Origin: an uncultured Microthrixaceae bacterium
GTDB lineage: Bacteria; Actinomycetota; Acidimicrobiia; Acidimicrobiales; Microtrichaceae
Length of the DNA: 64,000 nucleotides
Direction: 5' to 3'
Assembly (NCBI GenBank): GCA_964420125.1
Contig: CAYQQQ010000019.1
Span: 1 to 64,000, forward strand
Shown: positions 1,814 to 64,000 of the stretch, one piece after another
Layout of the letters: every line of letters begins with the position of its first letter
Position numbering within the stretch: the first letter of the stretch is position 1
Program-made: the position numbers and the translations under genes
Notes under the pieces: generated by a model
What the model was told of the DNA's origin: nothing
The model's input: only the letters and a program-made list of their open reading frames with translations
The model's database searches: none

Positions 1814-4180
1814 TCACTGCTTGGCCAGGAACACCGCGAGGAGGTCCTCGTCGGTGTCGTACAGCTCGCCGGAGGTGTCGACCACCACGTCGTGCAGGGT
1901 GCCGGTGAAGGGGAACGGCGCCCGGTAGGTGGCGGGTTCGACAGAGTCGAAGGCGGCGTAGCCGCAGCTCATGCCGAGCACCCCGATCATGATGGGCGTG
2001 GTGAACTCCCACTCGGCCGCGCCGGCCAGCCGGTCGTCGAACCAGAGCCTGGCCAGGCCGCCTGGCCCCCGCCCGTTGAGCAGGTCGATGCCGGTCGTGG
2101 GCTCGAACTCGAAGCGCAGCGCCACCTCGCCGGAGGGCAGCGCGTCGGCGGAGCGGACACCGAAGCGGCGGAGGCCCACGTAGTTGTGCACGAAGCGGAG
2201 GTGACCGTCGTCCACGAAGAAGGCGAACCCGGCGTGACGGCTCCCTTGTGTGAGCAGGATCCCCTCTGCTCCTGCCTCGGGGATCTCGCCCCGGGCGGTG
2301 ATGCTGTAGCTGCGGTTGACGAGCCGGGGTGCAGCGGCGAAGGCCAACGGTGCTCCGCCGGGGTAGAAGGTGGTGCGGTCCCGTCGGCGGGCGACCTTGG
2401 GCCGGGTCGCGGCGAGACGGCTCAGCTCGGCCGCGGCGATGGGCAGCACCCCGTAGGTGCCGGCCTCGGCGTACCAGCGCTGCACCATGTCGCGGAGCCG
2501 GCCTGGCTCCTGGGCTGCCAGGTCGTGGATCTCGGAGGGGTCGGCGCGCAGGTCGTACAGCTCCCATCCGGTGGCATCCAGCTGGTCGAGGACGGCTCCG
2601 GTGAGGGGTTGACCGAACCGGCGACCTTCGGCCTCGCCCTCGGCGAAGCTCGGACCGGGGAAGGGGCAGACCGCCTTCCAGCCGTCGTGGTAGAGCGACC
2701 GGTGGGCGAGCATCTCGGAGTACTGGGTGAGGTGCCGGCTGGGGGCGTCGGGTTCGTCGAAGGTGTGGGCGAAGCTCACCCCCTGGATCGGGGACTGCGT
2801 GACGCCCCGGATGGTCTCGGGGGGCTGGAGCTCGAGTGCGTCGAGGAGGGTGGGGACGAGATCGATGGCGTGGCAGTACTGGTCGCGGACCTCCCCGGCA
2901 GCCGAGATCCCCGCCGGCCAGGAGATCAGGCAGGGGTCGGTGATGCCGCCCCGGTAGGTCTCCCGCTTCCAGCGCCGGAACGGGGTGTCGCCTGCCCAGG
3001 CCCAACCCCAGGCGTAGTGGCAGAAGGTGTCAGGGGAACCCCACTGGTCGTAGTGCTCGAGGTTGTCCTCCAACGTCTCGGCGACCATGTTGAAGAAGAG
3101 CGTCTCGTTGAAGGTGCCGTGCACGCCTCCCTCGGCGCTGGCGCCGTTGTCGGAGATCACCACGACGATGGTGTTGTCGAGCTCGCCGGTGCGCTCGATG
3201 AAGTCGATCACGCGGCCGAAGTGGTGGTCGGTCTGCTCGATGAAGCCGGCGTAGACCTCCATCTGGCGGGCGTACATGCGGCGGGCGTCCTCGGAGAGGG
3301 TGTCCCAGCCGGGCACGTCGGGATCGCGCGGAGGGAGCTCGGCGTCGGGGGCCACGATGCCGAGGGCCTTCTGGCGTTCCAGCACCAGCTCCCGGTAGCG
3401 ATCCCATCCGTCGTCGAAGCGGCCGCGGTACCTCGCGATCCACTCCGGCTCGACGTGGTGGGGGGCGTGACCGGCGCCAGGCGCGTAGTAGAGGAAGAAC
3501 GGCTTGTCGGGGGCGGTGACGTGGGCGTCCTGGAGGAACTCGATGGCCCGGTCGGCGAGGTCGATGTTGAGGTGGTAGCCCTCCTCGGGGGTCCGCGGAG
3601 GTCGGACCGGGTGGTTGTCGTGGACCAGGTCGGGGTACCACTGATCGGTGTCGCCGCCGAGGAACCCGTAGAAGCGCTCGAACCCCCGTCCCAGCGGCCA
3701 GCGGGTGAACGGCCCGGCCATCGTGGTCTCCTCCGGCGGGGTGAGGTGCCACTTGCCCACGGCGAAGGTGTTGTAGCCGGCCTCCAGCAGCGTCTCTGAG
3801 AGGAAGCCGTGCTCGAAGCCCATGATCCCGTTGAGGGCGGGGTAGCCGATGGACAGCTCGGTGATCGCACCGAGACCGAGGGTGTGGTGGTTGCGACCGG
3901 TGAGCACGCAGCCACGCGTGGGGGAGCAGAGCGCGGTGGTCTGGAAGTTGGAGTAGCGGAGCCCTCTCTCGGCCAGCCGGTCGAGGGTGGGGGTCTGACA
4001 GGGCCCGCCGAAGACGGACATCTGCCCGTATCCGACGTCGTCCCACACCATGACCACCACGTTCGGGGCCCCCTCCCGGGCGCGGTTGGGCGCCGGCCAG
4101 GCGGGTTCGGACTCGTCGAGGGTGCGACCGATCACCCCCGGGAACCGGCTACCGGGCGGATACTCCTCGGGCTCGAACAT
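1814..4180 (-). CDS. Arylsulfatase-family type I sulfatase (788 aa), no signal peptide
   Basis: CSPTRG (C-x-P-x-R formylglycine motif), metal-binding DD/GKWHL motifs; full-length sulfatase fold in translation. Confidence 0.85.
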   Translation of the reverse strand: MFEPEEYPPGSRFPGVIGRTLDESEPAWPAPNRAREGAPNVVVMVWDDVGYGQMSVFGGPCQTPTLDRLAERGLRYSNFQTTALCSPTRGCVLTGRNHHTLGLGAITELSIGYPALNGIMGFEHGFLSETLLEAGYNTFAVGKWHLTPPEETTMAGPFTRWPLGRGFERFYGFLGGDTDQWYPDLVHDNHPVRPPRTPEEGYHLNIDLADRAIEFLQDAHVTAPDKPFFLYYAPGAGHAPHHVEPEWIARYRGRFDDGWDRYRELVLERQKALGIVAPDAELPPRDPDVPGWDTLSEDARRMYARQMEVYAGFIEQTDHHFGRVIDFIERTGELDNTIVVVISDNGASAEGGVHGTFNETLFFNMVAETLEDNLEHYDQWGSPDTFCHYAWGWAWAGDTPFRRWKRETYRGGITDPCLISWPAGISAAGEVRDQYCHAIDLVPTLLDALELQPPETIRGVTQSPIQGVSFAHTFDEPDAPSRHLTQYSEMLAHRSLYHDGWKAVCPFPGPSFAEGEAEGRRFGQPLTGAVLDQLDATGWELYDLRADPSEIHDLAAQEPGRLRDMVQRWYAEAGTYGVLPIAAAELSRLAATRPKVARRRDRTTFYPGGAPLAFAAAPRLVNRSYSITARGEIPEAGAEGILLTQGSRHAGFAFFVDDGHLRFVHNYVGLRRFGVRSADALPSGEVALRFEFEPTTGIDLLNGRGPGGLARLWFDDRLAGAAEWEFTTPIMIGVLGMSCGYAAFDSVEPATYRAPFPFTGTLHDVVVDTSGELYDTDEDLLAVFLAKQ

Positions 4181-4287: not shown

Positions 4288-5016
4288 TCAGCCTGCACCG
4301 TGATGGTCTGCAGAGAGCCAGTCCCGCACCTCCGCGGCCGGACCGTCCTGCACGAGCTCGCCGTCGGAGAGCACCAGACCGCGCTGGAAGCCGTCGATCA
4401 CGGCCGGATCGTGGGTGGCCACGATGAGGGTGGCTCCCTCCTGGTGGGCTTCTGCCAGGAGCTCCAACATGGCGGCGCGGCCGGACGCGTCGAGACCCAC
4501 GAAGGGCTCGTCCACCAGCAGCACCGAGAAGGGCCGGCAGAGGGCTACGGCGATCGCCGTCTTCTGGCGCAGGCCGCGGCTGAACTGGCTGGGGAGCTGG
4601 TCGCGGCGGTCCACGAGCTCCAGTCGGACGAGCAGGTCCTCCAGCAGGTCCTCGTCCTCCGAGCCTCCGTGCAGCCGGGCCACGTAGCGGAGGTGCTCGT
4701 CGACGGTGAGGTCGTCGTAGAGCACGGGTGTGTCGGGGAGCCACGAGCGGTTGGCCCGGGCCCCGAGGGAGCCAGGTCCCTCTCCGTGGATGCGGACCTC
4801 ACCACCGGTGGGCTCCGACGTGCCGGCGAGGAGGTTGAGGAGGGTCGACTTGCCCGACCCGTTGTGGCCGACCAGCACCACGGACTCCCCGGACATCACC
4901 TCGAGGTCCAGCGGGGCGAGGGCGACCACGTCGCCGTAGTCCTTCTCGAGGTCCTCACAGGCCACCGCGGGCACCTCCCGGCGCCTACCCCCGCCGGTCC
5001 CGCTCTTGCGACTCAT
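4288..5016 (-). CDS. ABC transporter ATP-binding protein
   Basis: Walker A GHNGSGKST, signature LSQFSRGLRQK-like, Walker B LLVDEP, H-loop THD; start ATG 5016 overlaps upstream stop (ATGA). Confidence 0.85.
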   Translation of the reverse strand: MSRKSGTGGGRRREVPAVACEDLEKDYGDVVALAPLDLEVMSGESVVLVGHNGSGKSTLLNLLAGTSEPTGGEVRIHGEGPGSLGARANRSWLPDTPVLYDDLTVDEHLRYVARLHGGSEDEDLLEDLLVRLELVDRRDQLPSQFSRGLRQKTAIAVALCRPFSVLLVDEPFVGLDASGRAAMLELLAEAHQEGATLIVATHDPAVIDGFQRGLVLSDGELVQDGPAAEVRDWLSADHHGAG

Positions 5017-6647
5017 GCGGATGCACCTCCACCCATCGACTCGGCCATCGACCGGTGGATGTCGGCGCGGAACCTCACCCAGCCGAAGACCAGGGCCACG
5101 AGGATCCACACCGCGACCCCGACGTTGAGCACGACGAGCTCGGGAGTCGCGGAGGTGGTGCGGCCGGCCACCAGCAGCGGCGCGAACCCGAGCATCGCCA
5201 CCAGCGGAGGCCACGCGGTGCGCAGGACCAGGCGGGGCCCGGCGACCTCCGGGGTCAACAGCGCCCCCGACGTCTCGGGGGTCGACCCGGACAGCACGCT
5301 GATGGCCGCACCGGCGACCGCTGCGGGCCCTGCGATGAGGACCCCGACCACACCCAGGGTCAGCACGTCCGCAGTCGGATCCACGGCCCAGGCCACGCCG
5401 ACGCCGACCGCGCCCGCCAGGACCATCACCAGGCAGGGCGCGACGAGGTGGCGCAGGTGGAGCTGTCCGAGGGGGACCGGGAAGCCGGCGGTGAGGGTGG
5501 GGTGGTCGATCTCCTCGGCCAGCGGCTCGGTGGCGTCCAGCGCCGCCACGAAGGTCGCCACCCCGGCCACGACGACCAGAGGTGTGGTGCCCGACCACAT
5601 CCCGCGCGCGGCCAGCGCGGCCACGGCGCACAGCACGACGACCCGGACCACTCGGATCGCCGGCCAGTGGGCGATGCTCTGGAGGTCGCGTCCGAGCACC
5701 GGCTGCCGGGAGCTGAGGAGGCGTGGCACGGGGAACCACCGGCGGTTCCTCGGGAGCTCCGAGGCGAGCTGGCGGCGCAGCAGCACGACGGAGCGGAGGT
5801 CCTGCACGGTGACCGCGAAGCGGAGCTGGCCGACCAGCTGGGTCCGCCGTCGGGCCGCCTCGATCGACAGGCCGCCGATGGCGAGGGTGCCGGCGGCGGC
5901 CAGGGAGAGGGCCACGAGGACGCCGCCGAGCCCCACGGTGCCCGAACGCAGCGGCCACAGCGCCAGCCGAGCGACCTGGGTGGTCGGGGCGTTCGGCACC
6001 CTGACCGGGGGATCTCGGAGGTAGGTGCTGACCAGCGACGCGGTGGCCCACGCCAGCAGACCCCAGGACACCGCCCAGGCGATGACGCCGGGGACACGCC
6101 GAGAGGAGGTGACCAGGGCGGCACCGAGGCCCATGGTGAGCAGGGTCGCCCCGAAGAGGGCGCCGACCGCCACCCACTCGGTGTTGGAACCCGGGAGGCG
6201 TTGGGCGGCCAGCGAGCCCGCCAGGCCGAACGCCAGAGCTCCACCGAGCGCGCCGTAGCCGAGCACCTCGATGCTGGGCCTGCGCAGCGTGGCACCACGG
6301 CTCACCGGGGCCAGGAGGAGGTGGTGGACGTCCGGCGCTTCGAGCGCCAAGGGTCCGCCGCGACCGCCGGAGCGGACACCGGCGACGAGCACCACCGCCA
6401 CGAGCAGTCCCAGCCACCCGGGAGCCTCGTCCGCCACCTGGGCCGCGGCCTGCGCCGTGAGCTCCTGGTCGCCCACCCAGCCGGCCAGCATCATGGCCAC
6501 CACAAGGCAGAACAGGGCCGTGGTGTAGACGCGGTAGGCGAGGTCCCCCCACTGGGTGTCTCCCAGGCGTCGGCGGCGACGGGTCGCACGCAGCTCGGCC
6601 ACAGCGGCCCACGTGGTCGGTTCGGGAGGGGGTTCGAGGGGGAGCAT
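5013..6647 (-). CDS. Polytopic membrane protein, putative ABC-2-type permease partner
   Basis: Long hydrophobic translation with >10 predicted TM segments; 4-nt overlap with downstream ATPase; start chosen at internal ATG 6647 (MLPLEPP...), the upstream part of the ORF is Arg-rich low complexity. Confidence 0.55.
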   Translation of the reverse strand: MLPLEPPPEPTTWAAVAELRATRRRRRLGDTQWGDLAYRVYTTALFCLVVAMMLAGWVGDQELTAQAAAQVADEAPGWLGLLVAVVLVAGVRSGGRGGPLALEAPDVHHLLLAPVSRGATLRRPSIEVLGYGALGGALAFGLAGSLAAQRLPGSNTEWVAVGALFGATLLTMGLGAALVTSSRRVPGVIAWAVSWGLLAWATASLVSTYLRDPPVRVPNAPTTQVARLALWPLRSGTVGLGGVLVALSLAAAGTLAIGGLSIEAARRRTQLVGQLRFAVTVQDLRSVVLLRRQLASELPRNRRWFPVPRLLSSRQPVLGRDLQSIAHWPAIRVVRVVVLCAVAALAARGMWSGTTPLVVVAGVATFVAALDATEPLAEEIDHPTLTAGFPVPLGQLHLRHLVAPCLVMVLAGAVGVGVAWAVDPTADVLTLGVVGVLIAGPAAVAGAAISVLSGSTPETSGALLTPEVAGPRLVLRTAWPPLVAMLGFAPLLVAGRTTSATPELVVLNVGVAVWILVALVFGWVRFRADIHRSMAESMGGGASA

Positions 6648-6733
6648 CGGCGGTCCCAGGACCGTACTTCGGCCCGGCCCCCGGCTCCACCTCCACCGCG
6701 GAGCGGCGTGAGGGTCCCGGTAGCCTGAGCCCG

Positions 6734-7489
6734 GTGACCGCCGACGAGCTCCCCGACGTGCCGCAGCCGTCGGCCAGGGCGCGGGAGCTGGCCTGCCTGA
6801 TCCAGCAGCACGTCGACCGCTTCGTCGACGACGACGCCGCCGATCCGGACGACCTCGCGGAGTTCCTCGACCGCCTGCCGCGCCAGGAGCGGGCACGGGT
6901 GGTGCGCGCTGCGTTCGAAGCCCTGCCCTCGCAGCGCCAGTGGGAGGTGCTCGAAGCCGTGTTCGGTGACGCGGAGATCGCCGAGTACCTGTGCGCGGAG
7001 CACGAGCGTCGTCGTGCCTGGCTGGCGGGGGAGGCGTCGCTGGTGTCGCTGGTGGAGGACGCCCGCTCCCGTGGCTCGATCGACCTGGCCTCGGTGGTCA
7101 GGGGTACCGAGGTGGTCCTGGGTCTGTTCCGCTCCGGCGACGTGGCCGCCGCGGCCGATCGAGGCCCGCGTTCGGACGTGTGCGCCCGGCGGGTGGTGCT
7201 GAGGGTCGCCGCCGAACACGGGGAGCTGCGCGTGATCGAGGACACGTTCAACCCGCGCGGGGGTCTGTTCGTCACCCCGGAGTACGACGCGCAGGTGTGG
7301 CAGTCCGAGCGCTGGCCCAGCCACACCCTGGTGCGGGTGGGGGCGATCGGGCCGGCAGAGGAGCTGGAGCCTGTGCTCTTCCCCGGGGCCCGACTGGATG
7401 CGGAGTACGACGCCCGGGTGCACCGGGGCCGGCTGCACCTCGGCTTCGCGCTGATCGGGGGCCACGACGTGTTCACTGGGGTGCGATGA
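6734..7489 (+). CDS. Hypothetical protein (acidic, no recognisable domain)
   Basis: Strong GC3 bias, protein-like composition, GTG start 6734, divergent from permease operon. Confidence 0.5.
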   Translation: MTADELPDVPQPSARARELACLIQQHVDRFVDDDAADPDDLAEFLDRLPRQERARVVRAAFEALPSQRQWEVLEAVFGDAEIAEYLCAEHERRRAWLAGEASLVSLVEDARSRGSIDLASVVRGTEVVLGLFRSGDVAAAADRGPRSDVCARRVVLRVAAEHGELRVIEDTFNPRGGLFVTPEYDAQVWQSERWPSHTLVRVGAIGPAEELEPVLFPGARLDAEYDARVHRGRLHLGFALIGGHDVFTGVR

Positions 7490-22929: not shown

Positions 22930-23328
22930 ATGCGCATCGGAGCTGTCGCCGAGGCCGCCGGGACCACGCCCAGCACCATCCGCTACTACGAGTCCGTCGG
23001 GCTGGTGGCGCCGCCGCCGCGCAGCGCCGCCGGCTATCGGGACTACCCGGACGAGGTGCTGGGGCGGCTGCAGTTCATCCGTGACGCACAGGCCAGCGGA
23101 CTGACTCTCGCAGAGATCCAGTCGGTGCTCGAGCTGAAGGACGCCGGCCGCCGCAGCTGCGAGCACACCGCTGCACTCCTCGAGCGACACCTGGCAGAGC
23201 TGGACGAGCAGATCGAGCGTCTGCAGCTGGCCCGGGTGGAGCTCGCCCGGCTCGCCGGCAGGGCGAGGGCCCTCGACCCGTCGGAGTGCACCGATCCGCA
23301 CCGGTGCCAGGTCATCGAGGGGCCTTGA
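22930..23328 (+). CDS. MerR-family metalloregulator, CueR-like
   Basis: N-terminal [28 protein letters not shown]; C-terminal Cys pair ECTDPHRC (C-x7-C as in Cu(I)-sensing CueR). Confidence 0.85.
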
Positions 23329-31941: not shown

Positions 31942-34350
31942 TCACACGAGCTCGGGTTCCCGCTCCTCGCCGCGCTCGTCGCCCCGGTGCGGATCCAGCT
32001 CCTGGGCCAGGATCTCGTCGACCTCGGCCGTCGTGCCCTCGACGTTGACGTGGGGCAGGATCCGCTCCAGCCACCGGGGCAGCCACCAGTTCCGCGCACC
32101 GAGCAGCTCCATGGTCGCCGGCACGAGCAGGAGCCGCACGATGGTGGCATCGATGAGCACGGCGGCGGCCAGGCCGAAGCCGAAGATCTTCACCGCACGG
32201 TCGGTCTCCAGCATGAAGCTGCCGAACACGAAGACCATGATCGCCGCTGCGGCGCTGATCACCTTGGCGGTGGCGGCAAGACCGTCGGCCACCGACGTGT
32301 TGGCGTCACCGGTTCGCAGCCACTCTTCCCGGATCCGGGAGAGCAGGAAGACCTCGTAGTCCATGGAGAGGCCGAACACGATGGCGAAGAGCATCATCGG
32401 CAGGAAGGGCTCCACCGGAGCAGCGGAGATCCCGAACGCGGGGATCACGCTTCCCCAGCCCCATTGGAACACGGCGACGGTGAGCCCGTAGGCGGCACCG
32501 ATCGACAGCAGGTTCATGATGACCGCCTTCACCGGGACCAAGAGGGACCGGAACACGACCATCAGGAGCAGGAACGACAACCCGAGCACGGCGACGAAGA
32601 ACAACGGGAGCCGTGTGGCCAGGTAGTCCGAGATGTCCACGGTGACGGCGACGAACCCGGTCAACAGGACGTCGAGCCCGGAGTCGTCGGTGGCGGCGGG
32701 AAGCACGTCGTCGCGGAGGTGGTGGACGAGCTCGGTGGTGGCCTCGTCCTGGGGCGAGGTCGTGGGGATCACGCGCCACATCACCGCGGTGGCCTCGGCC
32801 GGTGGGTCGGAGTTGACCAGCTCCAGGGTGTTGGGGATGGCCGGGGTGACCTCGGCCACGCCGGGAGTGGCCGCCAGGGCGTCGCTGACGGGCTGCGCGA
32901 CGGCGGGGTCTGCGCCCTCGGGGAGCGTGGCGATCAGCAGGAGCGGACCGTTGTGGCCGGGGCCGAAGGCGGCGGCCAAGAGGTCGTAGGCTTGGCGGCT
33001 GGTGGAGTCCTCGGGCAGGTTGCCGTCGTCACCGAAGCCGAATCGCAGGCTGAACATGGGGATCGCCAGACCGAGCAGGACGACGGAGCTGATGATCGTC
33101 ACGGTCCACGGACGGGCCTGGACCAGGCGGCTCCAGCGATAGGCGAAGGTCTCGCGCAGCGGCTTGTCCTTCGTCGTGGGAACGGTCTTCGAGAGGGGCG
33201 TGGAGAACTTGAACAGCGCCGAGAAGACCGACACGACCACCACGAGCGCGGCCACGACCAGCGCCACCATGGACACCGCCGGCAGGGCGAGGCCGATGCC
33301 GATCAGCGCCACGGCGACGCCGCCGGCGAGCAGCAGGCCTCTCCAACGCGTGACCTCGATGTGGCGGCCTGCGAAGCCGAGCAGCGCCGGAAGGAGCGTG
33401 AGCGAGGCCACCATGGTGGCGGCCACCGTGACGGCCGAACCCACGGCCAGTCCGTTCACGAAGCCGATCCGCATGATCAGCATGCCGAGCAACGAGATCA
33501 CCACGGTGAGGCCGGCGAAGAGCACGGCTCTCCCCGAGGTGTCGATGGCGATCCCCACGGCCTCCTCGACGGGGTGCCCGGCGCGCAGCTGCTCCCGATA
33601 CCGGGTCACGATGAACAGGGCGTAGTCGATGCCCACACCCAGGCCGATCATGATGCCGAGGGTGCTGGTCGACTCGGGCATCGTCATGAGGTTCGAGGCC
33701 AGGAGGACGATGGTGGTTCCGGCGCCGATCCCACCGAGCGCGACGAGCACGGGCAATCCCATGGCCATGACGGAGCCGAAGGCGAGGATCAGGATGAAGA
33801 TGGCGAAGGCCAGGCCGAGCATCTCGGAGTCCGGCTGCTCGAAGGTGCTGAAGAGCTCACCTCCGTAGTCGATGTCCGTTCCCTCGATCGTGGGGGCGAA
33901 GCCCTTCACCTCGGTGCCGAAGCCCTCCATGGAGTCGCGGTTGGGTTCTCCGGCGAGCTCGATGTCGGCATAGGCGACGTGTCCGGCGTAGCGGCCCCTG
34001 GAGGAGATCTGGGTGGCGCCGGTCGGAGCGAAGGGGGAGCGGACGGTCGAGCCGTCGATGCTGTCGACCTCCGCCAGGAACTCCTCGAGCTCCGCCACCA
34101 GCGCAGCGTTGGAGATGGGCCCATCGGAGCGGAAGACGATCGTGCCCCGGGCACCGGTGCCGACGCCGTCGAAGTTGGCATCGAAGATGTCCCCGCCCCT
34201 CGTGCTCTCGAGCTCGGGGAGATCGAAGGAGCTGCGGATGTCGCTGCCGGCGGTCTGCGCCGCCACTCCCAGCCCGATCAGCACGGCGAGCCAGATCGCC
34301 ACCACGACCCAACGACGCGTGGCGCACCAGGTTCCCATTCGAGCGAACAT
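31942..34350 (-). CDS. MMPL-family RND transporter
   Basis: Two 6-TM bundles with large extracytoplasmic loops, MMPL topology; GGGAG RBS before ATG 34350. Confidence 0.85.
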   Translation of the reverse strand: MFARMGTWCATRRWVVVAIWLAVLIGLGVAAQTAGSDIRSSFDLPELESTRGGDIFDANFDGVGTGARGTIVFRSDGPISNAALVAELEEFLAEVDSIDGSTVRSPFAPTGATQISSRGRYAGHVAYADIELAGEPNRDSMEGFGTEVKGFAPTIEGTDIDYGGELFSTFEQPDSEMLGLAFAIFILILAFGSVMAMGLPVLVALGGIGAGTTIVLLASNLMTMPESTSTLGIMIGLGVGIDYALFIVTRYREQLRAGHPVEEAVGIAIDTSGRAVLFAGLTVVISLLGMLIMRIGFVNGLAVGSAVTVAATMVASLTLLPALLGFAGRHIEVTRWRGLLLAGGVAVALIGIGLALPAVSMVALVVAALVVVVSVFSALFKFSTPLSKTVPTTKDKPLRETFAYRWSRLVQARPWTVTIISSVVLLGLAIPMFSLRFGFGDDGNLPEDSTSRQAYDLLAAAFGPGHNGPLLLIATLPEGADPAVAQPVSDALAATPGVAEVTPAIPNTLELVNSDPPAEATAVMWRVIPTTSPQDEATTELVHHLRDDVLPAATDDSGLDVLLTGFVAVTVDISDYLATRLPLFFVAVLGLSFLLLMVVFRSLLVPVKAVIMNLLSIGAAYGLTVAVFQWGWGSVIPAFGISAAPVEPFLPMMLFAIVFGLSMDYEVFLLSRIREEWLRTGDANTSVADGLAATAKVISAAAAIMVFVFGSFMLETDRAVKIFGFGLAAAVLIDATIVRLLLVPATMELLGARNWWLPRWLERILPHVNVEGTTAEVDEILAQELDPHRGDERGEEREPELV

Positions 34351-58214: not shown

Positions 58215-58577
58215 TCAGCCGGCCGTGGCGCTGAGCTGTGCGCGCACCTCGTCCATGTCGAGCTCCTGTGCCTGGCGGATCAGGTCCTCCAGCCCGGCCT
58301 CCGGCAGCGCGCCCGCCTGGTTGTAGAGCAGGACGCCGTCGCGGAACACCATCAGCGTGGGGATGGACATCACGCCCAGGGAGCCCGCGAGCGCCTGCTC
58401 GGCCTCGGTGTCGACCTTGGCGAAGACGATGTCGGGATGGGCCTCCGAGGACTTCTCGAAGATGGGTCCGAACATGCGGCAGGGGCCGCACCAGGATGCC
58501 CAGAGGTCGACCAGCACCGTCCCGTCGGCGGCGACGGTCTGCTCGAAGTTGTCGGCGGTCAGCTCGATCGTGGCCAT
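58215..58577 (-). CDS. trxA: Thioredoxin
   Basis: WCGPC active site, 120 aa, thioredoxin fold. Confidence 0.9.
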   Translation of the reverse strand: MATIELTADNFEQTVAADGTVLVDLWASWCGPCRMFGPIFEKSSEAHPDIVFAKVDTEAEQALAGSLGVMSIPTLMVFRDGVLLYNQAGALPEAGLEDLIRQAQELDMDEVRAQLSATAG

Positions 58578-58644
58578 GTGTCGTTCTTCCTGTCGTCGGT
58601 GGTCGCGGTGTCCGTTGCACCGGATCCTCCAGGATGAACCACCG

Positions 58645-58658
58645 TACCCCATGGGGTA
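58645..58658. promoter_or_regulatory. Perfect 14-bp palindrome TACCCCATGGGGTA in the trxA / monooxygenase divergent promoter (CsoR-family-operator-like)
   Basis: GC-rich TACCC...GGGTA pseudo-palindrome architecture resembling CsoR/CstR operators and the motif upstream of the CsoR-family gene at 63323. Confidence 0.4.
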
Positions 58659-58729
58659 TTCCCGCAGCCGCGCACGGACCTGTCGGGCTGACGGCTATCC
58701 TCCCGCCGGTCCCGAACCAGGAGCTGCCC

Positions 58730-60259
58730 GTGAGCTTGGACCACCTCCCAGCCGAGCCTGAGGCCGGCACCGAGGGAGTCGAGCGCGTGAGGTCGGTCGA
58801 CGTGGCGATCGTCGGTGCCGGCGCCGGGGGGTTGTGCATGGCGGCCCGCCTCCGTGAGCAGGGCATCGAGGACCTGGTGATCCTCGAGAAGTCCGACGGG
58901 GTCGGAGGCACCTGGCGCGACAACACCTATCCGGACGCCGCCTGCGACGTCCCCTCCCATCTCTACAGCTTCTCCTTCGCCACCAAGGCAGACTGGAGTC
59001 GCAAGTGGGCCAAGCAGCCGGAGATCCTCGGCTACTTCGAGCACGTCGTCCAGCGCTACGACCTGGAACGCCACCTCGAGCTGCGCACCGAGGTCGCGGA
59101 GTGCCGGTGGCTCGACGCGGCGCAGTGCTGGGAGCTGCGCACCGCAGCCGGTCCTCGGTTGCGCGCCCGGGTGGTGATCTGCGCCCTCGGCCAGCTCAAC
59201 GTGCCGTACATCCCCGAGCTGCCGGGCCTCGGGGACTTCGACGGCACGGTGTTCCACTCGGCGCGCTGGGACCACGAGCACGATCTGCGTGGCGAACGGG
59301 TGGGTGTCGTCGGCGTCGGGGCCTCGGCCATCCAGTTCGTGCCGCCGGTGGCCGACGTCGCCGCGTCGGTCACGCTCTTCCAACGCAGCCCCAACTACGT
59401 GGGGCCGAAGCGGGACAGGGAGTTCCGTCGTTGGGAGCGGTGGGCCTTCGCCCGCGTTCCGGGCGTGGCGCGCCTCTACCGAGGGTCCATCTACTGGCGA
59501 CACGAGGCTCGCTTCGCCCTCATGCGCCGCAACTCGCTCCTCGGCCGGCTCCTGCAGGAGGCCTTCCGGCGTCGCGTCCGGGAGCTGGCCGACGACCGTC
59601 TCCCGATGGAGGCCCTGATGCCGGCGTACGCGCCCGGGTGCAAGCGCGTGCTGATCGCGGATCGTTGGTACCCGACGCTACGGCGCGAGAGCGTCGAGGT
59701 CGTCACCTCGCCGGTGCGACGAGTCGTCCCGACGGGGATCGAGTGCGACGACGGTCGTCGATTCCCGCTGGACACGCTCGTGTTCGGCACGGGCTTCCGC
59801 ACCACGGACTTCCTCACCCCGATCCGGGTGACCGGGCGCGACGGTGCAGATCTCGACGCGCTGTGGGCGTCGGGTGCGGCGGCCTACCTCGGCATGGGCA
59901 TGCCGAGGTTCCCGAACCTCTTCCTGCTGTACGGGCCGAACACCAACCTCGGGCACAACTCCATCCTGTTCATGATCGAGCAGCAGGTGGGCTACGTGCT
60001 CGCCGCCCTGGAGCAGCTGCGCCAACGGGGGGCGACCTCCATGGAGGTCACGGACGGGGCGATGGCGCGCTGGGAGCGCGAGGTGCGTCGCCGAGCGGAG
60101 GAGACGGTGTGGGCCGAGGGGTGCGGCAGCTGGTACACGACCGACGACGGTCGACTCACCAACAACTGGGTGGGTCGCACGACGGAGTACCGGCGCCGAC
60201 TGCGCCGCCCGCGCTGGACGGACTGGTCGTTCCACGTCGGCAAGCCGAACCTCAGCTGA
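58730..60259 (+). CDS. Type I Baeyer-Villiger / flavin-containing monooxygenase
   Basis: FAD GxGxxG AIVGAGAGG, BVMO fingerprint FDGTVFHSARWD, second Rossmann VGVVGVGASA; CCAGGAG RBS before GTG 58730. Confidence 0.8.
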   Translation: MSLDHLPAEPEAGTEGVERVRSVDVAIVGAGAGGLCMAARLREQGIEDLVILEKSDGVGGTWRDNTYPDAACDVPSHLYSFSFATKADWSRKWAKQPEILGYFEHVVQRYDLERHLELRTEVAECRWLDAAQCWELRTAAGPRLRARVVICALGQLNVPYIPELPGLGDFDGTVFHSARWDHEHDLRGERVGVVGVGASAIQFVPPVADVAASVTLFQRSPNYVGPKRDREFRRWERWAFARVPGVARLYRGSIYWRHEARFALMRRNSLLGRLLQEAFRRRVRELADDRLPMEALMPAYAPGCKRVLIADRWYPTLRRESVEVVTSPVRRVVPTGIECDDGRRFPLDTLVFGTGFRTTDFLTPIRVTGRDGADLDALWASGAAAYLGMGMPRFPNLFLLYGPNTNLGHNSILFMIEQQVGYVLAALEQLRQRGATSMEVTDGAMARWEREVRRRAEETVWAEGCGSWYTTDDGRLTNNWVGRTTEYRRRLRRPRWTDWSFHVGKPNLS

Positions 60260-61808
60260 GCGGCGCCACCATCGCCTCCACCACCGACGGGCCCTCCACG
60301 GCGAACGCCGCCTCGAGCTGCTCGGTGAACTCCTCGGCGGTGGTGGCGCGGGACGCGTGCGCGACGCCGCAGCCCTCGGCCAGCGCCACGAAGTCGAGAT
60401 CGGGTCGGTCGATCCGCAACATGGCGTTGGCCCGCTCGCCGTCGCCGGTGGCACCGACCCGATCGAGCTCCATCTTCAGCACGGCGTAGGCGCTGTTGTT
60501 CAGGATCACGGTGGTGACGTCGAGTCCCTCGCGGACCTGTGTCCACCAGGACTGCAGCGTGTACATGGCGCTGCCGTCGGCCTGCAGGCTGAAGACCTTG
60601 CGGTCCGGGCAGGCGATCGCCGCGCCGGTGGCCACCGGCATGCCGTAGCCGATCGCTCCGCCGGTCAGGGTCATCCAGTCGTGGGGCGGGGCGCCGGCGG
60701 TCATCCCGGCGACGAACAGCCCGGTGGTGTTGCCCTCGTCGGCGACGATCGCATCCTCGGGCAGCAGTGCCCCCACGGCGGCCGCCATGGTCTGCGCTGT
60801 GAGGGCGCCTGTCGGCCGCTCGGGTCGGGATGCGGGAGCCGCAGGTGCCTCCGCATCGCCAGCGAGGAGGTCGGCCAGCTCGGCCAGGGCGGTAGCCGAA
60901 TCGTCACCGGGGAGGCTGAGGTGGTGCACCGTGCAACCGGCGGGAACCAGCTCCGAGGGCTTCTCCGGATAGGCGAAGAACGACACCGGGGCGCTGGCTT
61001 CCACGAGGATCAGGTGCTTGAGGCCGTCGAGCTGCATCTGCGCGAACTCCGCGAGGTAGCCCAGGCGTTCCGCAGGGACGCGGCCTGCTCCGCGCTCGTA
61101 GCGCGCGGGGAAGGTCTCCGCGAGGAGCTTGGCTCCGGTGGCGGCGGCGACGCGGCCGGCGTCGGCCAACGGGCCTGCCAGGCAGGCGGTGCCGCCGACG
61201 AAGAGGCCGCACGGCTCGCCGCTGCGCAGGATCTTGGCCACCTCTTCCAGCCGCCCCGACTCCACGGGGTTCGCCCGGGGGACGGGGAGGGGGGCGGCCG
61301 GCCCACCGGAGGGGAGCCAGCTGGCATCCGCCGGCAGGATCAGGGTGGAGATCTGCCCCGGAGGACCGTGGGCGGCGGCGACCGCCTCCGCAGCGTCTCG
61401 AGCGACGTCCTCGGGGGAGTTGCTGCGGCGGACCCATCCCTCGAGGCTGGCGGCGATGGAGGCGATGTCCGACTGCAGCGGCGCGTCGTAGCGGGCGTGG
61501 TAGGTGGCGTGGTCGCCGACGACGTTCACGACGGGAGTGCGGGCGCGGCGTGCGTTGTGGAGGTTGGCCAGGCCGTTGCCGAGCCCGGGACCGAGGTGCA
61601 GCAGCACGGCCGCGGGTCGTCCGGCCATGCGTCCGTAGCCGTCCGCCGCGCCGGTGGCCACCCCTTCGAAGAGGGCGAGCACCCCACGCATCTCGGGCAC
61701 GTCGTCGAGGGCGGCCACGAAGTGCATCTCCGAGGTGCCGGGGTTCATGAAGCAGGTGTCGACTCCGGAGTCGATCAGCGTGCGGATGAGTGCGTTGGCG
61801 CCGTTCAT
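60252..61808 (-). CDS. Thiamine-diphosphate-dependent enzyme (benzoylformate decarboxylase / acetolactate synthase-like)
   Basis: Three-domain ThDP enzyme architecture; ThDP-binding GDG-type motif (LQADGSAMYT...NN). Confidence 0.85.
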   Translation of the reverse strand: MNGANALIRTLIDSGVDTCFMNPGTSEMHFVAALDDVPEMRGVLALFEGVATGAADGYGRMAGRPAAVLLHLGPGLGNGLANLHNARRARTPVVNVVGDHATYHARYDAPLQSDIASIAASLEGWVRRSNSPEDVARDAAEAVAAAHGPPGQISTLILPADASWLPSGGPAAPLPVPRANPVESGRLEEVAKILRSGEPCGLFVGGTACLAGPLADAGRVAAATGAKLLAETFPARYERGAGRVPAERLGYLAEFAQMQLDGLKHLILVEASAPVSFFAYPEKPSELVPAGCTVHHLSLPGDDSATALAELADLLAGDAEAPAAPASRPERPTGALTAQTMAAAVGALLPEDAIVADEGNTTGLFVAGMTAGAPPHDWMTLTGGAIGYGMPVATGAAIACPDRKVFSLQADGSAMYTLQSWWTQVREGLDVTTVILNNSAYAVLKMELDRVGATGDGERANAMLRIDRPDLDFVALAEGCGVAHASRATTAEEFTEQLEAAFAVEGPSVVEAMVAPLS

Positions 61809-61835: not shown

Positions 61836-63209
61836 TCAGAAGATGGTGTCGGGGTTCATGATGCCCTTCGGGTCGAAGGCGGCCTTGATCCGGCGCATGA
61901 GCGCCAGCTTGGCGGGGTCCTCGAGGGCCAGGAGGTGGTCCCGCTTGGCGTGGCCGATGCCGTGCTCGGCGGAGATGGCGCCCCCGAGGGCGATGCCGGC
62001 TTGGAGGAGGTCGTGCATCACGCCCTCGCGCACCTCGGCATCGCCGTTGCAGAACACCCCGAGGTGCACGTTGCCGTCGCCGGCGTGGCCGCAGCCCGCG
62101 ATCCAGGCTCCGTAGCGAGCGCCGATCTCCGACACGCTCGCCATGTACTCGGGGATCCTGGCCCGGGGGACGACGACGTCCACGACCTCGTCGGCGTTGT
62201 TGGCCTTGGAGATCCAGAAGGCCTTCTCGCGGGCGTCGATGAGCTGCTCTGCGGAGTGGGGCGGCAGGACGTACACGTCGAGGGCGCCGAGCTCCCCGAG
62301 CTGGAGTGCCAGGCTCTCGGTGTCCTGCTCCAGGCGGTCCTCGTGGGAGCTCTCCAGCATGACCACGAGGTAGGCCAGCGCGGCTTCGCGGACCTCCTCG
62401 GGGATGCCGAGGTCGAGGCCGACGAAGGCCGTGGCTGCCGCCATCGTCATCATGTCGATGTACTCGAGGATGAGCGGGCCGATCCCGGAGTCGACGATCC
62501 GCGGCACGGCAGCGGTCACCTCCTCCAACGTGGAGAACGGTGCCAGCACGGTTGCCTGGTGGGGGAGCCGGGGCTGCAGCTTGAGGGTGATCTCGGTCAC
62601 CAGGGCCAGGGTGCCCTCGCTGCCCACCACGAGCTGGGTGAGGTCGTAGCCCGAGGTGGCCTTCACGAAGCGCCCGCCGCTGCGAAGGACCTCCCCGCCG
62701 GGGAGCACGAGCTCCAAGCCGAGCACGTGGTGGCGGGTGACGCCGTACTTGACGGCCCGCATCCCACCGGCGTTGGTGTTCACGTTGCCGCCGAGGCTGG
62801 CGGAGTACTCCCCGGGGTAGACCGGGTACACGAAGCCGTGCCGGGCGAGCTCCTCATCCAGCTCGTTGAGGCGTACCCCGGGCTGCACCACCACGACGTG
62901 GTTGTCGGCGTCGACCTCCAGGATGCGGTTCATCCGCTCGAAGCTCACCAGGATGCCGTCGGAACGGGCGATGGCCGCGCCCGAGAGCCCGGTGCCGGCA
63001 CCCCGCCCGGTCACGGGGATCCCGTGCTCGTCGGCCACCCGCAGCACCGCGGCCACCTCCGCGGTGCTCTCCGGGGTCACCACTGCGGCGGGCCGGCACG
63101 CGCTGATGGTGAGGGCCTCGTCGTGGGTGTAGTCCTCGCCGATGTCGTCGCCCATCAGCACGCGGCCCTCGGGGAGGGACGCGGCGAGCAGGCGTTGGAC
63201 GTCGGTCAT
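61836..63209 (-). CDS. FAD-linked oxidase (GlcD / D-lactate dehydrogenase family)
   Basis: FAD_binding_4 motifs GRGAGTGLSGAAI, C-terminal FAD-oxidase domain GISAEHGIGHAKRDHL; AGGAGGA RBS before ATG 63209. Confidence 0.85.
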   Translation of the reverse strand: MTDVQRLLAASLPEGRVLMGDDIGEDYTHDEALTISACRPAAVVTPESTAEVAAVLRVADEHGIPVTGRGAGTGLSGAAIARSDGILVSFERMNRILEVDADNHVVVVQPGVRLNELDEELARHGFVYPVYPGEYSASLGGNVNTNAGGMRAVKYGVTRHHVLGLELVLPGGEVLRSGGRFVKATSGYDLTQLVVGSEGTLALVTEITLKLQPRLPHQATVLAPFSTLEEVTAAVPRIVDSGIGPLILEYIDMMTMAAATAFVGLDLGIPEEVREAALAYLVVMLESSHEDRLEQDTESLALQLGELGALDVYVLPPHSAEQLIDAREKAFWISKANNADEVVDVVVPRARIPEYMASVSEIGARYGAWIAGCGHAGDGNVHLGVFCNGDAEVREGVMHDLLQAGIALGGAISAEHGIGHAKRDHLLALEDPAKLALMRRIKAAFDPKGIMNPDTIF

Positions 63210-63322: not shown

Positions 63323-63338
63323 ATACCGTGGGGGGTAC
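63323..63338. promoter_or_regulatory. CsoR-operator-like pseudo-palindrome ATACCGTGGGGGGTAC
   Basis: TACC-N-GGGGGTA architecture matching the recalled CsoR operator form (e.g. B. subtilis copZA operator TACCCTACGGGGGTAT); about 50 bp upstream of the CsoR-family gene. Confidence 0.4.
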
Positions 63339-63388
63339 AAGAGCGGTGGTGTGGGTCGACGTCCCGCACCTGAGGACGAGGAGCGCCG

Positions 63389-63658
63389 ATGGAGATCCCC
63401 GAGGAGGTGCGGGCCGAGCTGCTGAAGCGGTTGCGGCGGGCGGAGGGCCAGGTCCGCGCCGTGCAGCGGATGTTGGACGAGGGCGCGGAGTGCCGGGATC
63501 TCATCACCCAGATCTCCGCAGCCTCGAAGGCCATCGATCAGGTGGGGTTCCGCTTGCTCGCCACCGGAATGGCCCAGTGCGCCGAGGACCCTCGCCGGGC
63601 GGAGGCGGAGGGATACCCCCTCGCGGAGATCGAGCGCCTGTTCACGAAGCTCGCCTGA
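63389..63658 (+). CDS. CsoR/RcnR-family (DUF156) repressor lacking all histidines (two-Cys, CstR-like)
   Basis: DUF156 signature AECRDLITQISAASKAID; Cys35 and Cys64 present but position 60 is Gly and the protein has no His at all. Confidence 0.8.
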   Translation: MEIPEEVRAELLKRLRRAEGQVRAVQRMLDEGAECRDLITQISAASKAIDQVGFRLLATGMAQCAEDPRRAEAEGYPLAEIERLFTKLA

Positions 63659-63659
63659 G

Positions 63660-64000
63660 ATGGCCGAGGGGATCCCGAGCGTCGCACCGGAGTGCGTCCT
63701 CGACCACGTGGAGCCCGGCACCGACCTGGTCGTGCCCCTGGCCAACGGTGAACCGGTGAGCCTGCTGGATGCCGTCGAGTCGGCGGCCGATCGGCTGGAC
63801 GGCGTGCGAGTGCACCAGATGCACGTGCTCCACGAACGCCCCTACCTGGACGGTCGCCACGGCGACCGACTCCGCCACGTGTCGTACTTCCTCTCGCACG
63901 TGACGCGCCCGCACCTCCACCACGGAGGACTCGACTTCGTCCCCACGCACTTCTCGGAGGTCCCCCTCCTGCTCGAGCACACGACGCGGCGCCCGCTGAT
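63660..64000 (+). CDS. Acetyl-CoA hydrolase/transferase-family protein, N-terminal part (runs off window)
   Basis: Open frame from ATG 63660 to window end; N-terminal pattern (DHVEPGTDLVVPLANGEP...YFLSHVTRP) consistent with the AcetylCoA_hydro N-domain. Confidence 0.45.
   Translation, partial: MAEGIPSVAPECVLDHVEPGTDLVVPLANGEPVSLLDAVESAADRLDGVRVHQMHVLHERPYLDGRHGDRLRHVSYFLSHVTRPHLHHGGLDFVPTHFSEVPLLLEHTTRRPL

Follow-up and report, generated by a model that had tools for sequence, protein, structure and literature searches.

A predicted thiol-based CsoR-family repressor of thioredoxin and its operators in uncultured Acidimicrobiia

The 89-residue CsoR-family protein encoded near the end of the window (by which we mean the whole stretch of DNA that was analyzed, 64,000 nucleotides in length) is most likely a thiol-based repressor that responds to persulfides or oxidants and that controls thioredoxin and itself. 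We regard the full model, a nonmetal regulator of the actinomycete x-C-x-C type that acts as a persulfide-released repressor of the thioredoxin gene and of its own gene, as reasonably probable. By analogy with characterized relatives, the inducer would be persulfide and not some other thiol oxidant. The initial annotation had proposed a two-cysteine sensor of the thiol or persulfide type that does not respond to copper, and this proposal was supported by the residues at the sensing positions, by the type of operator, and by the persulfide dioxygenase (PDO), rhodanese, and TauE clusters that surround related regulators. The features of the window that bear on this assignment are collected in Table 1.

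Table 1. Coordinates of the regulator, its candidate operators, and other genes in the window
Feature	Position	Strand	Remarks
Regulator gene, CsoR/RcnR family (PF02583)	63389-63658	+	270-nt ORF, 89 aa, x-C35-G60-C64, no His
Operator 1, ATACCGTGGGGGGTAC	63323-63338		50 bases upstream of regulator ATG; candidate autoregulatory site
Operator 2, GTACCCCATGGGGTAT	58644-58659		thioredoxin/FMO divergent intergenic region, 152-bp gap
Thioredoxin (trx, WCGPC)	58215-58577	-	PF00085, E = 3.4e-25; TIGR01068, 103.6 bits versus cut-off of 96.8
Flavin monooxygenase (FMO/Baeyer-Villiger type)	58730-60259	+	PF00743, PF13738; divergent from trx
Acetolactate-synthase-like TPP enzyme	60252-61808	-	divergent neighbor of regulator
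GlcD-like FAD oxidase	61836-63209	-	divergent neighbor of regulator
Acetyl-CoA hydrolase/transferase, 5' part	63660-64000	+	weak PF02550 match; one base after regulator stop (TGAgATG)
Heavy-metal MerR-family gene	22930-23328		directly precedes P1B ATPase
P1B ATPase, copper-translocating model TIGR01511	23342-25711		533.5 bits versus cut-off of 397

Both its sequence and its predicted fold place the regulator in the CsoR/RcnR superfamily. The translated protein, MEIPEEVRAELLKRLRRAEGQVRAVQRMLDEGAECRDLITQISAASKAIDQVGFRLLATGMAQCAEDPRRAEAEGYPLAEIERLFTKLA, passed the profile threshold of Pfam family PF02583 (Trns_repr_metal, or DUF156; E = 1.9e-22, with 79.9 bits where the cut-off is 22.8), and its ATG start is backed by an N-terminal motif, M-[ED]-[IL]-P, that is conserved among 119 homologs. 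An AF2 model built with 33 homologs had a pLDDT of 91.6 and was all-helical, with two long helices (residues 5 to 30 and 35 to 66) followed by a C-terminal helix with a short break (residues 68 to 73 and 78 to 88). When this model was searched against the PDB, the top matches were all CsoR-family chains, a result that speaks to the family level, since a monomer search does not separate CstR from CsoR and the inter-subunit site lies outside the monomer.

The sensing residues are more informative. The protein has no histidine and only two cysteines, Cys35 and Cys64. In a phmmer alignment with CsoR from Streptomyces lividans (4adz), the segment LLATGMAQC lies opposite LLEEHLRHC, and Gly60, four residues before Cys64, is opposite the Cu(I)-ligand His100. 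The same glycine is opposite the wedge Asn55 (N55) of Streptococcus pneumoniae CstR (LLATGMAQC versus IITENLTEC). The W-X-Y-Z fingerprint of the regulator thus reads x-C-G-C, and the residue before Cys35 is Glu34, where Cu(I)-CsoRs have tyrosine. The initial annotation had described an 89-residue DUF156 protein that keeps C35 and C64, has glycine at the position of the copper ligand, and is devoid of histidine; the translation, the PF02583 match, the alignment to 4adz, and the composition bear out each of these points. It had also called for fingerprint scoring against reference proteins, and the outcome was x-C-G-C with Glu before Cys35 and no His. The alignment to Mycobacterium tuberculosis CsoR, Staphylococcus aureus CstR, and Escherichia coli RcnR and FrmR is illustrative only.

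These residues bear directly on metal sensing. We consider it very improbable that the protein still senses Cu(I), through a two-coordinate bis-thiolate formed by Cys35 and Cys64' without histidine, even though it shares family, fold, and operator architecture with the Cu(I)-CsoRs, has S. lividans CsoR as its best PDB match in both sequence (E = 9.7e-14) and fold (TM = 0.82), and finds its top NCBIfam match in RicR (52 bits). The RicR score is far under the cut-off of 175 bits, the family throughout lacks both the ligand His and the Tyr ahead of the first Cys, and no copA or copZ gene lies beside any locus whose annotation or gene calls were inspected. Moreover, the insensitivity of CstR to Cu(I) in cells has been ascribed to tuning of its affinity for Cu(I) and of its allosteric response (PMC8643695). 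Copper does not appear to be the signal because the regulator lacks the His ligand and the second-shell Tyr that are found in the Cu(I)-CsoR/RicR proteins of S. lividans and M. tuberculosis and has no cop gene nearby. We also tried the regulator as a Cu(I)-sensing CsoR by its defining features (x-C-H-C, Tyr, and copA/copZ) and rejected it on Gly60, Glu34, and the lack of adjacent cop genes.

A further point against copper sensing is that a MerR-family regulator is paired with a copper-type ATPase in the same window. The initial annotation had assigned copper control to a CueR-type MerR protein beside copA. Part of this claim stands: the MerR gene is next to an ATPase that passes the TIGR01511 cut-off, which is the only P1B ATPase in the window, lies 38 kb from the regulator, and has an N-terminal CopZ-like domain. 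The label "CueR-type" was not established, because the MerR-family protein is under the CueR cut-off (84 versus 147) and scores about equally against the ZntR, CadR, and MerR models. This protein has a mid-sequence Cys77 and a C-terminal pair of cysteines; cysteines in mid-sequence are more often a feature of sensors of the MerR, ZntR, and CadR types than of CueR. Separate control of copper by a MerR-family regulator is plausible.

Other members of the superfamily sense formaldehyde (FrmR) or nickel and cobalt (RcnR and InrS), and a sensor of either kind is exceedingly improbable here. It is favored by weak NCBIfam matches to FrmR (34.7 bits) and RcnR (26.7 bits) and by JGI pipelines, which name relatives "FrmR family." Like RicR, however, neither model came near its equivalog cut-off (133 and 138, respectively), and no rcnA or frmA-type neighbors were seen. 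FrmR forms a methylene bridge through Pro2, whereas residues 2 and 3 of the regulator are Glu and Ile. RcnR (H-C-H-H) and InrS (H-C-H-C) need His at the W, Y, and Z positions (PMC8643695), and the regulator has none. The fingerprint of the regulator, with no His and no Pro2, contradicts both identities.

The preferred reading, a nonmetal thiol sensor, draws on operators as well as on residues. The motif ATACCn6GGTAT is the operator of the Streptomyces coelicolor persulfide sensor ScCsoR (SCO0620), as defined by EMSA (PMC7533328). Operators 1 and 2 are the only matches to this motif with at most one mismatch in the 64 kb of the window, where 0.11 sites were expected by chance and none of 100 shuffled sequences reached two. 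Operator 2 contains a perfect 14-bp palindrome, TACCCCATGGGGTA (58645 to 58658), and is 66 bases upstream of the thioredoxin ATG (58577) and 70 bases upstream of the GTG (58730) of the FMO gene. The start of the FMO gene is ambiguous, however, and the alternative ATG at 58634 would put operator 2 inside the open reading frame. Operator 1 has one mismatch to the motif and is weaker than the family consensus described below, with a G at position 6 that is found in 7 of 158 sites and a C at position 16 that is found in 13. Both sites had been pointed out from the DNA alone, the first as a GC-tract pseudo-palindrome upstream of the regulator and the second as a palindrome at 58645 to 58658; the former was located at the position of operator 1, and the latter turned out to be the perfect core of operator 2. 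Additional sites with two mismatches (30734, 46369, and 58083) were dropped, as five sites against 3.2 expected was not significant. A scan for consensus sigma-70 promoters and terminators between 58400 and 64000 found none, which is unsurprising at 72% G+C.

The combination of residues and operator has precedent among actinomycetes. Fakhoury et al. (2021) described a sequence similarity cluster (SSN cluster 3) of 3,175 actinomycete sequences with the x-C-x-C fingerprint, including ScCsoR and Rv1766 of M. tuberculosis (PMC8643695), and this group has been assigned as candidate persulfide sensors (PMC8643695, PMC11672702). Polysulfide frees ScCsoR from DNA, Cys37 and Cys66 are both needed, and the protein autoregulates (PMC7533328). 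A 2024 review in Chem Rev noted that the actinomycete group is without the wedge Asn, which tunes reactivity in structurally characterized CstRs, and called its reactive sulfur donors unknown (PMC11672702). On the evidence of its sequence, its operators, and the neighborhoods of its relatives, the regulator appears to match this group. Its X and Z positions are cysteines, its W, Y, and Z positions lack His, and the wedge Asn is missing; the ATACCn6GGTAT operator is present, including a site before its own gene. A sulfur-detoxification neighborhood was absent from the window locus and present in the family, where 47 of 80 related loci had at least one of Rhd, PDO, TauE, SQR, and DUF302 within 7 kb of the regulator. 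With the ScCsoR/Rv1766 group it also shares the PF02583 fold, the 29-residue spacing of the cysteines (C37/C66 versus C35/C64), and, as seen in plasmid-borne ortholog proxies, Gly rather than His or Asn at Y; the comparison was made via a synteny-matched plasmid protein of S. xanthophaeus that stands in for SCO0620 and Rv1766. Unlike ScCsoR and Rv1766, the window protein comes from Acidimicrobiia and not from Actinomycetes, and unlike the gene for ScCsoR, its gene has no adjoining PDO-rhodanese or TauE genes, its conserved local targets being thioredoxin and the regulator.

The annotated relatives illustrate what such neighborhoods contain. A search of annotated plasmids returned 135 records, all from actinomycetes, in which the best regulators were 40 to 48% identical to the window protein; the top relatives, from Streptomyces and Arthrobacter, were 47 to 48% identical (BLASTP E = 3e-27 and 2e-24). 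An ATG[L/M]xxC motif was common to the window protein and six annotated actinomycete regulators, and the closest annotated relatives, from Streptomyces, Arthrobacter, Mycobacterium, and Rhodococcus, carried the same operators. In Arthrobacter YC-RL1, four operators occupy the space between the regulator and a divergent set of genes for a PDO-rhodanese, two rhodaneses, and TauE. The S. xanthophaeus locus (rhodanese, regulator, TauE-rhodanese-PDO) has the published gene order of SCO0618 to SCO0621, and its regulator has the cysteines (Cys37 and Cys66) published for ScCsoR (PMC7533328). The M. adipatum locus reads regulator-DUF302-TauE-PDO, and that of R. opacus B4 reads PDO-MMPL-regulator-DUF2892-DUF302-TauE-PDO.

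The regulator had initially been called CstR-like, which holds for the class of thiol sensor and not for CstR proper. Like the CstRs of Firmicutes (S. aureus, E. faecalis, and S. pneumoniae), it has the x-C-x-C fingerprint with an acidic residue just ahead of the first Cys, no ligand His, a GC-tract operator of the CsoR type, and relatives that are linked to genes for sulfurtransferases, PDO, and TauE. Identity is low, at about 25% to S. aureus CstR and 23 to 26% to the CstR chains of S. pneumoniae that the fold search matched. In CstR, wedge Asn55 (x-C-N-C) shapes the dithiol site, whereas the regulator has Gly60 in its place; we therefore rejected CstR proper in favor of the actinomycete ScCsoR/Rv1766 type. 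The product also differs between the two reference systems, with a single Cys persulfide reported for ScCsoR versus the bridged polysulfides of CstR.

To characterize the family more broadly, we turned to two larger surveys. In a database of 5.8 billion proteins, 216 relatives were recovered, and among the 120 best of these 216, most were exactly 89 residues long and 63 had no His at all. Both cysteines were invariant in the 119 aligned homologs, 117 of which had Gly in place of the His; the position preceding the first Cys was occupied by E, D, or Q in 117 of the 119 and by Tyr in none. When genomes were scanned, one for each species, at least 591 were found to encode a relative, and the 80 best matches came nearly all from Acidimicrobiia MAGs. 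Across these 80 loci (881 kb) there were 158 operator matches, compared with 5 to 15 in shuffled sequence, and 78 loci had at least one. The consensus derived from them was ATACCCC-nn-GGGGTAT. Apart from the regulator itself (51 loci), the gene most often found next to an operator encoded an MMPL transporter, followed by genes for thioredoxin (9 loci), TPMT/TehB-like methyltransferases (8), SQR-like flavoproteins (7), and TauE (5). Within 7 kb of the regulator, we found homologs of MBL-fold/PDO proteins in 33 of the 80 loci, rhodanese in 35, MMPL in 29, TauE in 15, DUF302 in 14, thioredoxin in 11, and an SQR-like gene in 7.

Several features of the family loci are worth recording in their own right. 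The MMPL (RND-type) gene is often directly upstream of the regulator and in the same direction, with two operators 22 to 35 bp apart (e.g., L005, L011, L012, L021, L062, L068, L078, and L083, at about 4600 to 7000, and plasmids L090 and L093). Operator-linked MMPL genes thus occur both in Acidimicrobiia (29 of 80 loci) and on Rhodococcus plasmids; to our knowledge, no part in the handling of persulfide or sulfite has been described for MMPL transporters. The window has a distant MMPL homolog (32044 to 34347, minus strand) that is 28% identical to the operator-linked MMPL of L012, with no operator nearby. The TPMT/TehB-like SAM methyltransferase gene is directly behind the operator in its 8 loci (e.g., L042, 8281 to 8895), and a homolog is within 7 kb of the regulator in 20 of 80; the regulon may thus include the methylation of sulfide, selenide, or thiols. 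Two or more regulator paralogs were present in several Acidimicrobiia genomes, sometimes 3 to 6 kb apart in one sulfur island and with the same operator consensus (L042, at 3260 to 3523 and 7001 to 7267; L045; L063; L062 and L074 in one MAG; and L011 and L038 in another).

Two observations concern gene calls and genome labels. The 102-residue product called for protein P0019 (L086 and L087; 10001 to 10040) starts 13 codons early, and its extra N terminus (YPIGY) is the translated operator ATACCCCATAGGGTAT. P0040, P0042, and P0094 (MGYQIRR, MGYKLRA) are probably over-extended at the N terminus in a similar way. In MAGs labeled as a Methanoregulaceae archaeon (L005), B. breve (L026 and L047), and Bifidobacterium sp. 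(L067), the regulators were 57 to 64% identical to the window protein and resembled those of Acidimicrobiia loci; these bins are probably mislabeled or contaminated.

Which genes travel with the operators was clearest in five orthologous contigs, whose regulators were 87% (L084), 73% (L094 and L095), and 75 to 76% (L087 and L096) identical to the window protein. The gene order from thioredoxin through FMO, TPP enzyme, and FAD oxidase to the regulator was kept in L084 and L095, which have a perfect operator before the thioredoxin gene and another operator before the regulator; L094 kept the same set of neighbors and both operators. Sites orthologous to operator 1 were present in all five contigs, and the operator stayed beside the regulator even when 0.5 to 3 kb separated the latter from the divergent FAD-oxidase gene. 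The initial annotation had suggested autoregulation from a CsoR-type operator, and this gained ground from the sites before the regulator in 51 of 80 genomes (within 300 bp upstream) and in all five orthologous contigs. Since the operator remains with the regulator in L087, L095, and L096, autoregulation appears to be the conserved function of operator 1, and we infer that it is an autoregulatory site. The FAD-oxidase/TPP operon was rejected as a target of operator 1, since in these same three contigs other genes intervene; although syntenic, the two genes are probably not under the control of this site.

A similar comparison separates the candidates for operator 2. Orthologous sites were found upstream of the thioredoxin gene in L084, L094, and L095. 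The pairing of thioredoxin with FMO was conserved in L084 and L095 but not in L094, where a wax-ester synthase gene lies between the two, the operator is 17 bp upstream of the thioredoxin ATG, and the FMO start is about 1.5 kb from the site. Because the operator stays at the thioredoxin gene in L094, it is thioredoxin and not FMO that operator 2 tracks. Operator-adjacent thioredoxins recurred in nine further family loci. Thioredoxin is thus the most likely regulated target of operator 2 on this comparative evidence, and FMO is a possible second one.

Downstream of the regulator, the acetyl-CoA hydrolase/transferase gene is probably cotranscribed with it in the window. As a conserved partner it was rejected, being absent in L084, located elsewhere in L094, and disrupted on the extended contig, L001. 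A fuller gene was seen on L001 and L095. On L001 (5259 to 6358) the gene is split, with a shift of frame and a loss of about 78 residues compared with the intact 427-residue ortholog of L095; either it is a pseudogene or the assembly is in error here. On contigs whose regulators are identical or closely related, a conserved block also follows the regulator, in which a gene for an Rrf2-family regulator and, after it, genes for a CoxD-like AAA ATPase, a CoxE-like VWA protein, and XdhC/CoxI (molybdo-enzyme maturation) are found at 6384 to 10228 in L001, 10298 to 14093 in L084, and 11645 to 15405 in L095. No operator was found in this Rrf2/CoxD/CoxE/XdhC block in any of the three.

Genes for sulfur oxidation were sought around the regulator itself. 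No PDO, rhodanese, TauE, or SQR homologs were detected by tblastn in the 64-kb window, the gene calls for the next 6.4 kb downstream (L001) included none either, and no sulfur-oxidation genes were present in the 20-kb loci of the orthologous group formed by the window, L084, L094, and L095. Because there are no sulfur genes at the locus, the sulfur link of the window regulator comes from relatives that are 40 to 65% identical to it. Nor does the chemistry alone fix the inducer, given the fast in vitro reaction of CstR with H2O2 (PMC11672702).

Despite the same class and operators, it is therefore conceivable that the regulator has been rewired into a general sensor of thiol oxidation or electrophiles (H2O2, disulfide stress, quinones, or aldehydes) with thioredoxin as its output instead of sulfide detoxification, and we give this reading a modest chance. 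Within the orthologous group, operators are found only at the thioredoxin and regulator genes, the 20-kb loci are those without sulfur-oxidation genes, and thioredoxin is a generic disulfide reductase; the fast reaction of CstR with H2O2 points the same way, and no H2O2-specific CsoR-family sensor has been characterized yet (PMC11672702). Three observations weigh against it. First, DUF302 is encoded directly downstream of the regulator in L087 and L096, and in L096 a rhodanese is also encoded divergently upstream; because these genes adjoin their regulators, the two close homologs are tied to sulfur chemistry. Second, in more distant loci, operator-linked thioredoxin genes sit inside islands with TauE, rhodanese, and DUF302, which makes thioredoxin an ordinary member of the sulfur regulon. 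Third, the sensing residues are equal to those of the sulfur-linked relatives. It is improbable that the orthologous group has been uncoupled from sulfide oxidation to become a dedicated peroxide or disulfide-stress sensor controlling thioredoxin, with the invariant Gly setting a different oxidant selectivity. If true, the group would be a candidate for a ROS- or disulfide-specific CsoR-family sensor, none of which had been characterized according to the 2024 review (PMC11672702).

For the persulfide-responsive repressor that we favor, a mechanism can be proposed from the biochemistry of ScCsoR and CstR (PMC7533328, PMC8643695). The reduced and presumably tetrameric regulator would bind ATACC(C)-n4-6-(G)GGTAT palindromes before its own gene and the thioredoxin gene and repress both. 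Sulfane sulfur, in the form of persulfides or polysulfides, would attack the nucleophilic N-terminal Cys35, which would end up as a persulfide or become linked through a di- to tetrasulfide bridge to Cys64 of a partner subunit. Modified in this way, the regulator would leave the DNA, so that thioredoxin and the sensor rise. Thioredoxin would serve as a persulfide and disulfide reductase, and autoregulation would reset the system.

The x-C-x-C kind of regulator has already been described (Fakhoury et al. 2021, PMC8643695; Chem Rev 2024, PMC11672702) and is partly characterized, and the window alone would add little beyond a well-supported functional assignment. What is new, as predictions from comparative genomics, is an operator consensus, a candidate regulon for an uncultured class, and thioredoxin and the regulator as the only conserved local targets of the orthologous group. 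Annotation pipelines label such proteins "metal-sensitive," "FrmR family," or "copper-sensing CsoR." Their fingerprint, operator, and neighborhoods point instead to a nonmetal thiol or persulfide sensor that is very common in Acidimicrobiia, a largely uncultured class, and the Gly-for-Asn chemistry of the group has been flagged in the literature as an open question. The predicted regulon in these bacteria would comprise thioredoxin, MMPL, rhodanese/PDO, TauE, DUF302, the SQR-like gene, and the TPMT/TehB-like methyltransferase.
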